Assembly: GCF_012985275.1 (NCBI RefSeq)
Contig: NZ_JABEKY010000003.1
Origin: Corallococcus exiguus
Lineage (GTDB): Bacteria; Myxococcota; Myxococcia; Myxococcales; Myxococcaceae
Reading direction: 5' to 3' (one strand)
DNA: 63,187 bases
Shown one piece after another: positions 43,656 to 46,761 of this stretch. The first letter of the stretch is position 1. Each line of letters begins with the position of its first letter. Both the position numbers and the translations under genes were made by a program. The notes beneath the pieces are model-generated. The model saw only the letters and a list, made by a program, of their open reading frames with translations, was not told where the DNA came from and ran no database searches.

Positions 43656-44696
43656 ATGCCCATGCCCAAATTCCTGTCCGTGCACGGCGCCGCCGCCGCG
43701 GTCCTGTTGAGCGCCCTGCCCGCCTGGGCCCAGTCCGCCCTGCCCGGCTTCGAATTGGAGCACCTGGAGATCAACCCCGGCCGCGGAACCGCGGTGATGC
43801 GCAACGGCGAGCTGCTGGTGCCCGGCGGCATGAGCCTGGGGCTGGTGGGCCAGTACCAACAGCTGCCGCTCGTGCTCCTCAACGGCGAGCGCCGCCTGGA
43901 GGCCGTGCGCAACCGCGCGTCCTCCGTCCTGGCGGGCAGCTACGGCGTGCTGCCCTGGCTGGAGGTGGGCGCGCAGGTGCCCGTGGTGTTGTGGCAGCAG
44001 GGGGATGATCCAGCGCCCCTGGGCCTGACGCCGCTGGCCTCGCAGGGCCTGGGCACCCCGGAGATACAGGCGCGCCTGGGGCTCTTGTCGCGCCGTGACG
44101 ACCACCCCGTGGACCTCGCCATGGACCTGGGCGTGGGGCTGCCCATCGGCAGCGCGGCGGTGCTGGGCCGGGACTCGGGCATCCGCGTGCGCGCCCTGGC
44201 CGCCATCGGCACGCAGGTGGGGTTCCTCAAGCCCGCGCTGGAGGCCGGCGTGCTGCTGCGCTCGCGCAACCCGCTCTCCGCGCCGAACGCCTCCGGACAG
44301 ACCCTGGAGGTCCGCCTGGGCGCCGGGTTGACGACGGCCGGACAGGGCCTGCGCGGCGAACTGGCGGTGAAGGCCGCCTTCGCGGCGGACATGGACCAGC
44401 CCGCTGTGGAGGTGCTGGCCGGCGGACGCATCCCGCTATCGGAGGGACTGGAGCTGCACGCGCTCGCGGGGCCCGGCCTGGGACGCACGCCGGGCACGCC
44501 CATCGCCCGGGTGCTCCTGGGCGTGTCGTTCCGCCAGGAGCCTCCTCCCCGGATGGAGGTGCTCCCGGAGCCCGTGCCCCACCTGCGCCTGGAGGAGTTC
44601 AAGACGCGGCCGGAGTACGTCCCGGACTCGAGCGTGGAGCCGGTGCCCACCCGCGAGCTGCTCCCCCCTGAACCCGCGCCGTCACCCTCGCCATGA
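43656..44696 (+). CDS. secreted Ala/Gly-rich protein with signal peptide, outer-membrane beta-barrel-like
   Basis: Signal peptide MPMPKFLSVHGAAAAVLLSALPAWAQS. Alternating hydrophobic beta-strand-like patterns. Pro-rich C-terminus. Confidence 0.6.
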   Translation: MPMPKFLSVHGAAAAVLLSALPAWAQSALPGFELEHLEINPGRGTAVMRNGELLVPGGMSLGLVGQYQQLPLVLLNGERRLEAVRNRASSVLAGSYGVLPWLEVGAQVPVVLWQQGDDPAPLGLTPLASQGLGTPEIQARLGLLSRRDDHPVDLAMDLGVGLPIGSAAVLGRDSGIRVRALAAIGTQVGFLKPALEAGVLLRSRNPLSAPNASGQTLEVRLGAGLTTAGQGLRGELAVKAAFAADMDQPAVEVLAGGRIPLSEGLELHALAGPGLGRTPGTPIARVLLGVSFRQEPPPRMEVLPEPVPHLRLEEFKTRPEYVPDSSVEPVPTRELLPPEPAPSPSP

Positions 44697-46375
44697 CCTT
44701 CGAGCCACGCATCGTCCTCGCCGCGTTCGACGGCACCCAGCCGCCTCCGGACAGCGTGCCCGCGTGGCTTGCGCGAAGCTGGGAGGATCCGGATGGCTTC
44801 GCCGCCGCGATGGCCCCCATCCACGCCGGCCGGAGCACGCCCTTCAAGAGCCGCACCGGCCAGCACCACGACTTCTTCCACGACCTGGTGGCCCGCCACG
44901 CCACCACGGACCGCATCGCGCTGCGCGCGTACTCGCGGACGCAGGGCTGGCGCACGCTGAGCTACCGCCAGCTCCAGGAGCAGGCCTCGCGGCGGGCCAC
45001 CGCCTGGGCGGGGTTGGGGGTGAAGCCGGGCGCGAAGCTGTGCCTGATGCTGCCGCCGGGCGCGGAGCTGATGGTGTCGCTGTGCGCCGCGCTGGGCCTG
45101 GGCGCGTGCGTGAGCCTCCTGCCGCCCGGGGCCCGCGCCTTCGTGGCGCGCCGGCTGGACGCGCTCGCGCCCCAACACATCGCCGCCGAGCCTCACCAGG
45201 CGCCGCTCCTGGGCAAGCACGCCTCGCGGCTCCTGCCCATGCAGACGCAGGTGCCGCCCGCGCTCGCGTCGTACACGTACAAGCCCTCCGAGCCGGTGGG
45301 CCTGCTCTTCTCTCCGCTGGCCAAACCCAGCGACGTGCCCGTGCCGCTCACCGCCGGGGACGCGTGGCGGAGCGCGCTGGTGGACGGGCTGCTGACCTTC
45401 GGACTGAACCCGGGGGACCACCTGGCGGCGCCGGGCTTCCACCCGCTCCAGCACCTGCCGGCGCTGTACTTCACCACGCTCCTGCGCGGCGCGACGTACC
45501 TGCACGTGGAGCCCGCGGACCTGGACGTCACTCCCACGCTGCTCACCGAGCACCCCGTGCGGGCCCTGGGCCTCACGCCCGCCGTGCGCGACCTGGTGGC
45601 CCGCGCGCGCCTTCCGCTCAAGAACGTGGGCCTGTGGTTCAGGGATCCGCAGGCGCCCTTCGACTTCTACGCCTGGCGCGACGCGCTCAAGGCCTGCGGG
45701 CTGGCCAGCGTGCCCGGCGGCAACGTGTGCGTGGACCCGGCGTTGGGAGGCGCGGTGCTGTGCTCGCACCGGCGCGTGGCGGCGGACGTGCACACGGACA
45801 TCGCCCCCGCGCCCGGGCGCGCCTGGGCGCTGCGCGACTTCACCGACAGCGGGCAGGACGCCGTGGGAGACACGGGGCTCTTCACCCCCCTGCCAGACGC
45901 CGGACGGCCGCTCGCGCACGTCGTCCTGACGCGGGTGCGCGGCCAGTACCACCACCTGGGCGTGCGCGAGCCCCGGCGCGAGGGACGGGTGTTCCTCTTC
46001 GAGGAGGTCGCGAACGCGCTGCGCGAGCCTCCCGGCCCCCGGCTGGACACGGTGGGGCTGGCCGTGCCGGAGAGCGGCCTGGCGGGCGCGTATCGCAGCG
46101 TGCTGGTCGTCTTCACCGGCGACCTGCCTCCCGGCGTGGAGGTCAGCGAGGCGGACGTGCGCCGCCGCATTGAACAGGCCCTGGGCGCGGACGCACTGCC
46201 GGACCGCATCGAGCGCTTCGCGCTCCACGCGCGGCGCCTGAACGGACAGCAGGACGGGCCGTTGGATGAAGAGTGGTGCCGTGCGCAGTACTTCATGGGC
46301 TCCCTGAAGCTGAAATCAGGAGACCCCCTGTTCCAGGCGCTCACGTCACTGCGCGCCCGGGTGGAGTCACGCTGA
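44693..46375 (+). CDS. adenylate-forming (ANL/acyl-CoA synthetase)-like protein with degenerate P-loop motif
   Basis: N-terminal architecture GWRTLSYRQLQEQASRRATAWAGLGVKPGAKLCLMLPPGAELMVSLCAALGLGA resembles AMP-binding enzymes. No canonical (T/S)SG(T/S)TGxPKG motif is seen. ATGA overlap at 44693. Confidence 0.55.
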   Translation: MTFEPRIVLAAFDGTQPPPDSVPAWLARSWEDPDGFAAAMAPIHAGRSTPFKSRTGQHHDFFHDLVARHATTDRIALRAYSRTQGWRTLSYRQLQEQASRRATAWAGLGVKPGAKLCLMLPPGAELMVSLCAALGLGACVSLLPPGARAFVARRLDALAPQHIAAEPHQAPLLGKHASRLLPMQTQVPPALASYTYKPSEPVGLLFSPLAKPSDVPVPLTAGDAWRSALVDGLLTFGLNPGDHLAAPGFHPLQHLPALYFTTLLRGATYLHVEPADLDVTPTLLTEHPVRALGLTPAVRDLVARARLPLKNVGLWFRDPQAPFDFYAWRDALKACGLASVPGGNVCVDPALGGAVLCSHRRVAADVHTDIAPAPGRAWALRDFTDSGQDAVGDTGLFTPLPDAGRPLAHVVLTRVRGQYHHLGVREPRREGRVFLFEEVANALREPPGPRLDTVGLAVPESGLAGAYRSVLVVFTGDLPPGVEVSEADVRRRIEQALGADALPDRIERFALHARRLNGQQDGPLDEEWCRAQYFMGSLKLKSGDPLFQALTSLRARVESR

Positions 46376-46761
46376 TGGGAATCCAGGTCGTGTCCGGAGC
46401 CATGCTCCAGTGCAGCTTCGGGATGGCGCCCTCGACGCTGTCGGTGCTGCCCGCCAACAAGGTGAACTCCACCGCGCCGGCGGCCACCATCATGGACAAC
46501 GTCCCGGGCATGAACGTGCCGCCCTTCGTCATGTGCAAGTCCATGGCGAACCCCACCGTGGCCACCGCCACCGCCGCCGCGATGGGCGTCCTCACGCCCA
46601 TGCCGTGCCTGCCGGTGATTCCCGCGCCGTGGACGCCGGGCTCGCCCACCGTGGTGATCAAGGGCAAGCCGGCGCTCACCGACACGTGCACGTGCACCTG
46701 CGCCTATGGCGGCATGATCAAGATCAACATGACCGCCCAGACGAAGACCCAGGTGAAGTGA
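46375..46761 (+). CDS. DUF4280 (PAAR-like) protein
   Basis: 128 aa. MGIQVVSGAMLQCSFGMAPSTLSVLP...NVPPFVMCKSMANP...TCTCTCAYGGMIKI fits the DUF4280/PAAR-like family. TGATG overlap with the upstream gene. Ends 1 nt from the tssF stop. Confidence 0.65.
   Translation: MGIQVVSGAMLQCSFGMAPSTLSVLPANKVNSTAPAATIMDNVPGMNVPPFVMCKSMANPTVATATAAAMGVLTPMPCLPVIPAPWTPGSPTVVIKGKPALTDTCTCTCAYGGMIKINMTAQTKTQVK

Follow-up and report, generated by a model that had tools for sequence, protein, structure and literature searches.

A predicted ANL-fold pseudoenzyme as a probable subunit of a Francisella-like type VI secretion system in myxobacteria

The 63,187-nucleotide stretch of Corallococcus exiguus DNA analyzed here (contig NZ_JABEKY010000003.1; hereafter the window) carries three consecutive plus-strand genes, called g1, g2 and g3, that abut a type VI secretion system (T6SS) cluster. 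The first, g1 (43656-44696, +), encodes a predicted 12-stranded outer-membrane beta-barrel with a Sec signal peptide and a proline-rich C-terminal tail, and the last, g3 (46375-46761, +), a DUF4280 PAAR-like spike-tip protein that resembles IglG of Francisella. Between them lies g2 (44693-46375, +), the main subject of this study, which encodes a predicted cytoplasmic pseudoenzyme of the ANL superfamily with the complete two-domain fold of acyl-CoA synthetases, at the position of iglF. Fold, motif and gene-order data suggest that this enzyme scaffold has probably been recruited as a part of the secretion machine.

The open reading frames (ORFs) listed for g1, g2 and g3 encode 346, 560 and 128 aa. 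Their GC contents at third codon positions (GC3), 0.93 for g1, 0.94 for g2 and 0.88 for g3 where the window overall has about 70% GC, mark them as real genes. At least eight contigs encode a protein identical to g2 (five are shown from NCBI assemblies), and g1-g3 are called identically in their annotation. Read from the sequence, g1 and g2 overlap in ATGA and g2 and g3 in TGATG, with a Shine-Dalgarno-like GGTGGAG just 5' of the second overlap, which holds the ATG of g3 at 46375; the three genes are translationally coupled. The stop codon of g3 (TGA, 46759-46761) is separated by a 1-nt gap from the reverse-complement stop (46763-46765) of a convergent gene for a 555-aa TssF-like protein, and a complete T6SS cluster lies beyond. 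The original prediction, which had described three coupled plus-strand genes ending 1 nt from the tssF stop and physically linked to a T6SS, is thereby borne out. A consensus scan of 43300-47000 matched no promoter or terminator, such a scan being uninformative for a myxobacterium. PADLOC returned no match for g1, g2 or g3, and an anti-phage defense system was rejected on that ground.

The ANL-fold protein g2 and its family

The likeness of g2 to ANL enzymes, first noticed from its sequence, is evident both in a profile scan and over the full length of the predicted fold. Specifically, Pfam AMP-binding (PF00501) scores 47.8 bits against a gathering threshold of 29.9, with residues 71-149 covering only positions 8-82 of the 384 in the profile. 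The AlphaFold 2 model, built on a 39-sequence alignment, reaches a predicted local distance difference test score (pLDDT) of 90.8 and a predicted template-modeling score (pTM) of 0.90. In Foldseek, both domains of the model match complete ANL enzymes, the best being acetyl-CoA synthetase 2p2f (E 2.8e-23, template-modeling (TM) score 0.69-0.74), with 4-chlorobenzoyl-CoA ligase (CBL), EntE and PltF also among the matches. Overall, the ANL matches span about 530-670 alignment columns, with E values of about 1e-23 to 1e-20, TM scores of 0.64-0.74 and identities of 14-19%. Comparison of g2 with Escherichia coli Acs by hhalign pairs residues 56-526 with 72-612 at a probability of 93.5, and profile searches of the PDB return ANL enzymes only. 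The two-domain fold and the above-threshold Pfam score place g2 within the ANL superfamily; past motif A10, a conserved C-terminal extension of about 35 residues (~526-559) forms three helices. Relatives of g2 carry the database names 'long-chain fatty acid--CoA ligase' or 'AMP-binding protein', which were transferred automatically on the strength of an 80-residue match at the N-terminus.

The residues that define an active adenylate-forming enzyme are missing from g2 and from its family, as judged from motif logos of 250 g2-family sequences that include representatives of 50%-identity clusters. Motif A3, canonically [ST]SG[ST]TGxPKG (TSGSTGKPKG in Acs and LgrA), reads FSPLAKPSDV in g2 and F-S-P-L-x-[ED]-P-x-x-x-P in the family, and the glycine-rich loop is absent across all 250 sequences. 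The Thr-Glu pair of A5 (YGxTE; QTETGG in Acs) is replaced by DPALGG in g2 and DAAAGG in the family, and the arginine of A8 (GR in GRxxD) by GV in g2 and G[T/P/S/A] in the family, according to the alignment with PltF. At A10, the lysine of PxxxxGK (Acs K609) corresponds to Pro523 in g2 and to Q, A, E, R or G in the family; a lysine occupies the position in one of 15 g2-family sequences, the flanking glycine and aspartate are retained, and the register is backed by alignments to PltF, DltA, CahJ and Acs. The aspartate of A7 (TGD) lies opposite non-acidic residues, an assignment less certain than that of A8, as the PltF and Acs alignments differ in register. The prediction of a protein without the canonical ATP/AMP motif is confirmed for A3 and extends to A5, A8 and A10, and an intact AMP-binding site, one of the two findings that would have spoken against it, is not present. 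By these logos and the model, g2 is a predicted pseudoenzyme of long standing that keeps the ANL scaffold intact. A role as a housekeeping fatty-acid ligase is ruled out by the loss of these motifs and by a genomic context that is in no case metabolic.

The family is large and, among its named members, nearly confined to one phylum. A word-indexed search returned 116 full-length relatives, every named one from Myxococcota, and an exhaustive profile search gave at least 391 clusters at 50% identity with E <=1e-30, the best 150 of which are nearly all full length and score at least 380 bits. The named members belong to Myxococcota, with the addition of one Desulfobacterales metagenome-assembled genome (MAG). 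The range comprises Cystobacterineae, Nannocystineae, Haliangium, Kofleriaceae and the Desulfobacterales MAG, and g2 is a single-copy gene whose product measures about 545-600 aa throughout. The nearest named genomes are those of Corallococcus, with 93% identity for g2 in C. coralloides and 100% in C. exiguus for the neighboring IglI-family protein. Myxococcus xanthus is not among the matches of the word-indexed search, and this T6SS therefore differs from any T6SS in M. xanthus. Some longer members were also seen: P0343 (Cystobacter fuscus, 1421 aa, 'choice-of-anchor D') matches g2 residues 26-306 only, and P0325, P0359, P0366 and P0383 (717-825 aa) are fusions or extended proteins with the full g2-like region at the N-terminus.

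Gene order ties this family to secretion. Homologues of all T6SS proteins of the window were placed by tblastn in 36 retrieved genome loci; one locus (L041), a partial match to the N-terminus of an ordinary ANL protein, was excluded, leaving 35 family loci. The same T6SS gene set lies less than 10 kb from g2 in 30 of these, four contigs are too short to judge, and one g2 is an orphan; g2 is within or beside the same non-canonical T6SS cluster in 34 of 35 contigs long enough to judge. Directly 3' of g2 (at most 0.9 kb away), g3 is found in 32 of the 35 family loci, which span 38-100% identity, and two others have it on the opposite strand at a distance of no more than 6 kb. The usual order is g2-g3-IglI-TssG-like-TssB-TssC-TssK-543aa-192aa-TssF. 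The convergent arrangement of the window recurs in Corallococcus, Vitiosangium and one cluster of Archangium lansingense, and in Nannocystineae g2 is divergent from tssB. Archangium lansingense has two T6SS clusters with one cognate g2 each (L014, L021). Four distant metagenomic or MAG contigs (L044, L045, L047, L048) all embed g2 in a T6SS cluster: L044 and L048 share the order tssM-iglE_N-g2-tssB-tssC, and a clpB-like gene lies just upstream of their tssM; in L045, tssB-tssC is placed upstream of tssM-iglE_N-g2, and the gene after g2 encodes a Ser/Thr kinase; and L047 has g2-IglI-like-TssG-like-tssB. A genomic context independent of the T6SS, the second finding that could have undone the prediction, is seen in a single locus, considered below.

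Within its cluster g2 evolves slowly. Over the 14 loci whose gene sets are complete, the mean pairwise distance is 0.26 for g3, 0.33 for TssC, 0.33 for g2, 0.42 for TssB, 0.47 for the 543-aa protein (spike base), 0.48 for the TssG-like protein and 0.51 for the IglI-family protein. By this measure g2 has diverged exactly as far as TssC of the sheath and less than the spike base and baseplate proteins, which makes g2 one of the most constrained proteins in the cluster, the opposite of what is expected of a polymorphic effector.

The neighbors of g2 and the adjoining secretion system

As had been recognized from its sequence, g3 is a DUF4280 PAAR-like protein. The Pfam DUF4280 profile (PF14107) matches it in full (positions 1-109 of 109, residues 5-122, E 9.5e-35). 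Its orthologues have 128 aa in nearly all loci and conserve cysteines at about positions 13, 54, 78 and 110, and four cysteines are the defining criterion of the DUF4280 family (PMC5349215), to which g3 therefore belongs. The protein has neither an N-terminal nor a C-terminal extension, and the NCBIfam IglG model gives 46.9 bits, below its cutoff of 200.

The first gene of the module, g1, encodes a protein that begins with the signal peptide MPMPKFLSVHGAAAAVLLSALPAWA, followed by QS (cleavage context LPAWA/QS). It has no Pfam match. The AlphaFold 2 model (31-sequence alignment) shows 12 antiparallel strands at a mean pLDDT of 75.7, with the barrel mostly above 85, and the closest solved folds in Foldseek are FapF (5o68, E 5.7e-9) and the COG4313 channel 4rl8; barrel matches have E values of 6e-9 to 4e-8, TM scores relative to the target of 0.6-0.68 and identities of 12-16%. 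With a signal peptide and a closed antiparallel barrel, g1 qualifies as an outer-membrane beta-barrel, so that the predicted signal-peptide barrel stands, while the term 'secreted' gives way to that of an integral outer-membrane protein. The protein belongs to a myxobacterial family in which most homologues have 450-500 aa and a C-terminal OmpA peptidoglycan-binding domain, which is missing from the copies in Corallococcus, Vitiosangium and M. hansupus, where a proline-rich tail takes its place (homologues examined for domain and tail: L015:2464-3933, L021:7482-8927, L012:4596-5978 and P0167-P0266). The loss of OmpA in g1 is a lineage-specific domain loss. An N-terminal match to NCBIfam TraB scores 23.4 bits against a cutoff of 700, and g1, which falls short of that cutoff and has no C-terminal OmpA domain, is not a TraB protein by these measures. 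Its proximity to g2 is confined to Cystobacterineae, where the two genes often lie a few kb apart or on opposite strands, and g1 is most simply regarded as a lineage-specific envelope accessory.

The T6SS of the window is complete and non-canonical and resembles the system of the Francisella pathogenicity island (T6SSii), a point that the original prediction had missed. Next to g3, a TssF-like (IglH-like) baseplate gene (46763-48430, -) matches Pfam T6SS_TssF over half of the profile (E 7e-21), NCBIfam TssF with 83 bits and, weakly, IglH_TssF. It is followed by a gene for a 543-aa protein (48434-50065, -) that has no family match in Pfam or NCBIfam and no sequence match in the PDB; from position and sequence inspection only, it may be a spike base (gp27/gp5-OB-like or PdpA-like). 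The protein is kept in all clusters and is usually followed by a short beta-helix protein of 192 aa (p192), which in the window is encoded at 57521-58099 (+) and would be a spike like the short Francisella-type VgrG, with sub-threshold scores of 23 bits for DUF2345 and 17.7 bits for TssI_Fran and nothing useful in a PDB sequence search. The baseplate wedge protein TssE (gp25-like; 50062-50448, -) is supported by Pfam GPW_gp25 and 30.7 bits for NCBIfam TssE. The 314-aa product of the next gene (50463-51407, -), which always follows the IglI-family gene, has no direct match and is the probable TssG/IglJ equivalent; the protein at the same position in L047 matches Pfam T6SS_TssG (E 4e-7). The IglI-family (ImpA_N/TssA-like) protein itself (51421-52422, -) scores 235.8 bits with NCBIfam IglI_fam against a cutoff of 100, and its homologues, which in the search were myxobacterial proteins only, are named IglI family or ImpA N-terminal domain-containing.

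The tube position (Hcp/IglC) is occupied by a 215-aa protein (53122-53769, -) that is called as a gene in the identical contigs and has no Pfam or NCBIfam match. It is followed by the large sheath subunit TssC (53801-55318, -; Pfam VipB, E 1e-109), for which the PDB search returned IglB (3j9o_B) with 420 bits versus at most 359 bits for other solved sheath proteins, and by the small subunit TssB of 186 aa (55369-55929, -; Pfam T6SS_VipA, E 1e-41). On the plus strand, the baseplate protein TssK (56240-57493, +; Pfam T6SS_VasE, E 1.5e-36) precedes the 192-aa spike, and DotU/TssL (58110-58748, +; NCBIfam DotU, E 3.6e-13; Pfam DotU in the identical contig L046) comes after it, succeeded by a conserved gene of 106 aa (58745-59065). 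The membrane complex is completed by a TssM/IcmF-like (PdpB-like) protein (59069-62770, +), with an NCBIfam TssM match over the C-terminus (E 8e-16) and a weak one to IcmF_helical, and by an IglE_N lipoprotein equivalent to TssJ (62767-63187, +). The lipoprotein gene is cut by the window end, and in L046 the 149-aa gene after tssM matches PF22361 IglE_N. An IglB-closest sheath, an IglE_N lipoprotein, an IglI-family protein and a DUF4280 tip together give the system its T6SSii-type character; of the further orthologues checked, TssI_Fran is weak at 17.7 bits and the 543-aa and 215-aa proteins have no matches. The window has no clpV, and a clpB-like gene is present in the cluster of three of the four distant relatives (L044, L045, L048).

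T6SSii has been described as exclusive to Francisella (PMC12955703), and a literature search on T6SSii with Myxococcus and on IglE or IglG with Deltaproteobacteria found no report of this myxobacterial cluster. The lineage thus appears undescribed outside Francisella. Curators have nevertheless noticed some of this relationship, since the existing NCBI IglI_fam and Pfam IglE_N models pick up proteins of the cluster.

Several further observations concern the surroundings. GC content falls to 0.635-0.66 over 52000-56000, which includes the 5' end of the IglI gene, the 215-aa protein, TssC and TssB, versus about 0.70-0.75 elsewhere. At about 52444-53114 the ORFs conflict: public annotation has a 199-aa plus-strand gene, and the GC3 filter favored a minus-strand ORF. 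Directly upstream of the T6SS, at about 7400-40300 (-), lies a complete phage-tail-like contractile injection cluster of the type known as eCIS (extracellular contractile injection system) or PLTS (phage-like protein-translocation structure). Among its genes are one for a sheath (35975-38389, -) and two for gp19-type tube proteins (~34.0-35.4 kb, -). Others encode a Baseplate_J protein of 1416 aa (27449-31699, -), a Tail_P2_I plus Kelch protein of 1256 aa (20774-24544, -), a beta-helix/DUF6519 protein of 2535 aa (13170-20777, -) and a spike that is gp5/VgrG-like (11404-12591, -). Between the two contractile injection machines there are only a DUF1622 gene, a PAS histidine kinase and the g1-g3 module. 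The multi-PAS histidine kinase (40956-43442, +; ~773-828 aa depending on the start) lies between the eCIS and g1 in a position conserved only within Corallococcus, and it is possible that it regulates one or both machines.

Possible roles of g2

The available data are compatible with a model in which g2 is an ANL pseudoenzyme recruited as a subunit or adaptor of the T6SS machine, with one copy per cluster, by analogy with IglF. This is the reading that we consider probable. Because g2 is single-copy and cognate to its cluster, is conserved to the same degree as TssC and keeps its synteny with the T6SS, it is best understood as a machine component and not as cargo. In the original prediction the PAAR-like gene was read as the sign of a variable module for an effector or cargo, accompanied by a putative immunity gene, a reading that does not agree with the single copy, the uniform length and the TssC-like conservation of g2, nor with the genes that follow it, namely g3 and then the convergent tssF, neither of which is immunity-like. 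A polymorphic effector with an immunity gene was rejected on these grounds of conservation, copy number and absent immunity gene, and a variable toxin/immunity module is very unlikely. Of the proposed 'effector or adaptor', the second term is the more apt, and 'machine subunit' agrees best with the data.

Mechanistically, g2 would be co-produced with g3 through the stop/start overlap and could act as a protein-binding scaffold in the assembly of spike and baseplate, in parallel to IglF with IglG and to DUF2169 with DUF4150, and it may be ejected together with the spike. In this model g3 would serve as a naked DUF4280 tip that sharpens a split spike made of the 543-aa base and the 192-aa beta-helix, and the g1 barrel probably helps to anchor the machine or to pass it through the envelope. 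The gene order in Myxococcota favors a place for g2 on the tip (g3), and the distant clusters together with the mirror-tree hint described below favor one on the baseplate or cap side (IglI, TssM-IglE).

Several observations weigh against g2 as a machine subunit of this kind or against its link to the tip. First, Archangium gephyra PVMSAZ (L017:10001-11683) has an intact 560-aa g2 with the usual upstream synteny, but downstream come genes for a Kelch-like secreted protein, an adenylate cyclase and a MutS fragment, and neither g3 nor any T6SS gene occurs within 10 kb; no other g2 among the 35 is an orphan, and this one is the sole exception to T6SS linkage. Second, in the four distant clusters the 10 kb on either side of g2 contain no DUF4280 gene, and the tip link may therefore be a local feature of gene order. 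Third, an exploratory mirror-tree analysis (14 loci, non-independent pairs) gave partial correlations of 0.69 for g2-IglI and -0.39 for g2-g3, which weakly points to the TssA-like/baseplate side as the partner of g2. Fourth, the domain of g3 starts at residue 5, leaving no room for the N-terminal amphipathic helix via which IglG binds IglF (PMC5014421); with its low NCBIfam score, g3 is not an IglG equivalog. In addition, NCBIfam and Pfam scans of g2, including an NCBIfam scan of residues 181-560 alone, return ANL families or nothing. Finally, the surroundings of the former active-site cleft contain numerous invariant polar residues (AAPGFHxLQH, RRxGR, DxxWC), so that ligand binding or unconventional catalysis in g2 is possible.

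There are three rival explanations. In the first, g2 would be an assembly or baseplate factor unrelated to the tip, for example a partner of the IglI/TssA-like cap or of TssM-IglE, and its adjacency to DUF4280 would be historical. The distant clusters, in which the neighbors of g2 are tssM-iglE_N and tssB or else the IglI-like and TssG-like genes, and DUF4280 is not close by, are what such a factor would lead one to expect, as are the partial distance correlation with IglI and a g3 without adaptor extension. However, g3 follows g2 directly in the great majority of family loci over a wide range of identity, the stop/start overlap recurs in several genera, and the mirror-tree signal comes from a small sample uncorrected for shared ancestry; we regard this explanation as unlikely.

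A similarly small chance is given to a second explanation, in which the DUF4280 tip carries g2 as a secreted effector of conserved, non-polymorphic type, which would bind a prey or eukaryotic target or act via a remodeled ANL cleft. In predators such as myxobacteria a conserved effector against prey is conceivable, and g2 is not only directly upstream of, and translationally coupled to, a PAAR-like gene but also retains the invariant cleft residues. In Francisella, moreover, IglF has been reported as secreted and proposed as an IglG-borne effector (PMC5014421, PMC5349215). Yet the same organism supplies an argument to the contrary, as iglF mutants fail to assemble a sheath, which is structural behavior (PMC5924787). 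Such an effector would also have to be as conserved as the sheath and more so than the spike, single-copy and cluster-cognate, and without an immunity gene, and in distant genomes its linkage would have to be to tssM-iglE, to tssB or to the IglI-like and tssG-like genes, and not to a tip gene. Nor does g2 have a toxin domain: scans with Pfam, NCBIfam and PADLOC found no toxin family in it.

The last explanation, an active adenylate-forming or ligating enzyme with a divergent site that acylates or modifies a T6SS component, lipid or small molecule, is hardly credible: for all its complete, confidently predicted fold in a thioester-state-like conformation, its above-threshold AMP-binding match, its conserved cleft and its database name of 'long-chain fatty acid--CoA ligase', all the motifs that touch ATP, Mg or AMP or carry out the adenylation (A3, the A5 Thr-Glu, the A8 arginine and the A10 lysine) are replaced family-wide by residues incapable of the same chemistry, and the names are automatic ones from the N-terminal match.

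Comparison with known systems

If g2 is confirmed as a machine subunit, it would show clearly how the scaffold of a metabolic enzyme can become part of a machine. The result also corrects hundreds of database entries named as ligases or AMP-binding proteins. We rate the finding as a T6SS accessory subunit of unprecedented fold origin in an under-described T6SS lineage. Specifically, T6SS accessory and adaptor proteins are known, and an origin from the ANL fold is new to the literature searched: searches on T6SS with AMP-binding found no report of an adenylate-forming-enzyme fold as a conserved T6SS component. The Francisella-type features of the system (IglB-like sheath, IglE, IglI, DUF4280 tip, split spike) appear to be widespread in Myxococcota, and tractable soil myxobacteria could be used to study the poorly understood proteins IglF, IglG, IglI and IglJ of the Francisella pathogenicity island. 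Besides Corallococcus, the cluster is present in M. fulvus and M. stipitatus.

Compared with ANL enzymes such as acetyl-CoA synthetase and the aryl-acid and nonribosomal peptide synthetase (NRPS) adenylation domains, g2 shares the full two-domain fold, an Acs-like N-terminal extension and the A1/A2 region. Unlike them, it has only the low sequence identity noted above, has lost the catalytic residues of A3, A5, A8 and A10 across the family and bears the extra C-terminal helical extension, and its family context, the single orphan aside, is exclusively that of the T6SS. The barrel of g1 has relatives of a different kind. It shares its 12 strands with FapF and the COG4313 channels, at low identity, and the barrel-plus-OmpA architecture of its homologues with myxobacterial TraB, whereas g1 itself is without OmpA and has weak N-terminal similarity; what sets it apart from FapF, COG4313 and TraB is a T6SS linkage that is confined to Cystobacterineae.

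The closest functional parallel to g2 is IglF. In Francisella, iglF lies immediately upstream of iglG, and its product binds the PAAR-like IglG (PMC5014421); likewise, g2 lies directly upstream of a DUF4280 PAAR-like gene in a T6SSii-type cluster. Both proteins are similar in size, at 67.9 kDa for IglF (PMC5924787) and 560 aa for g2, so that g2 matches IglF in position and in size, and the Francisella order iglF-iglG-(iglH-dotU)-iglI-iglJ is mirrored by the g2-g3-IglI-TssG-like block. The genes iglF, iglG, iglI and iglJ make up the four needed for sheath assembly in Francisella, where iglF mutants assemble no sheath (PMC5924787). The hosts differ, one being an intracellular pathogen and the other a soil predator. 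A bolder step, that g2 is a true IglF orthologue and an obligatory, ancient subunit of a free-living lineage related to T6SSii in Myxococcota and Desulfobacterota, is tentative and on balance doubtful. If it were true, it would provide the first fold assignment and an evolutionary origin for IglF, for which a search of the literature on IglF and adenylation found no paper assigning an ANL fold, and T6SSii would no longer be restricted to Francisella.

Among established adaptors, DUF2169 is a chaperone needed by DUF4150 (PIPY) PAAR-like tips and has been proposed to keep the tip secretion-competent (PMC11883445). Like g2, DUF2169 and the adaptors DUF4123/Tap and DUF1795/Eag are conserved, non-toxic accessories encoded beside the gene of a non-canonical PAAR-like tip, and all are proposed to maintain their tip complex in a secretion-competent state. 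They are unrelated to g2 in fold and family, with no Pfam match of g2 to any of them, and unlike these adaptors, g2 is linked to the core cluster even where no tip gene is nearby.

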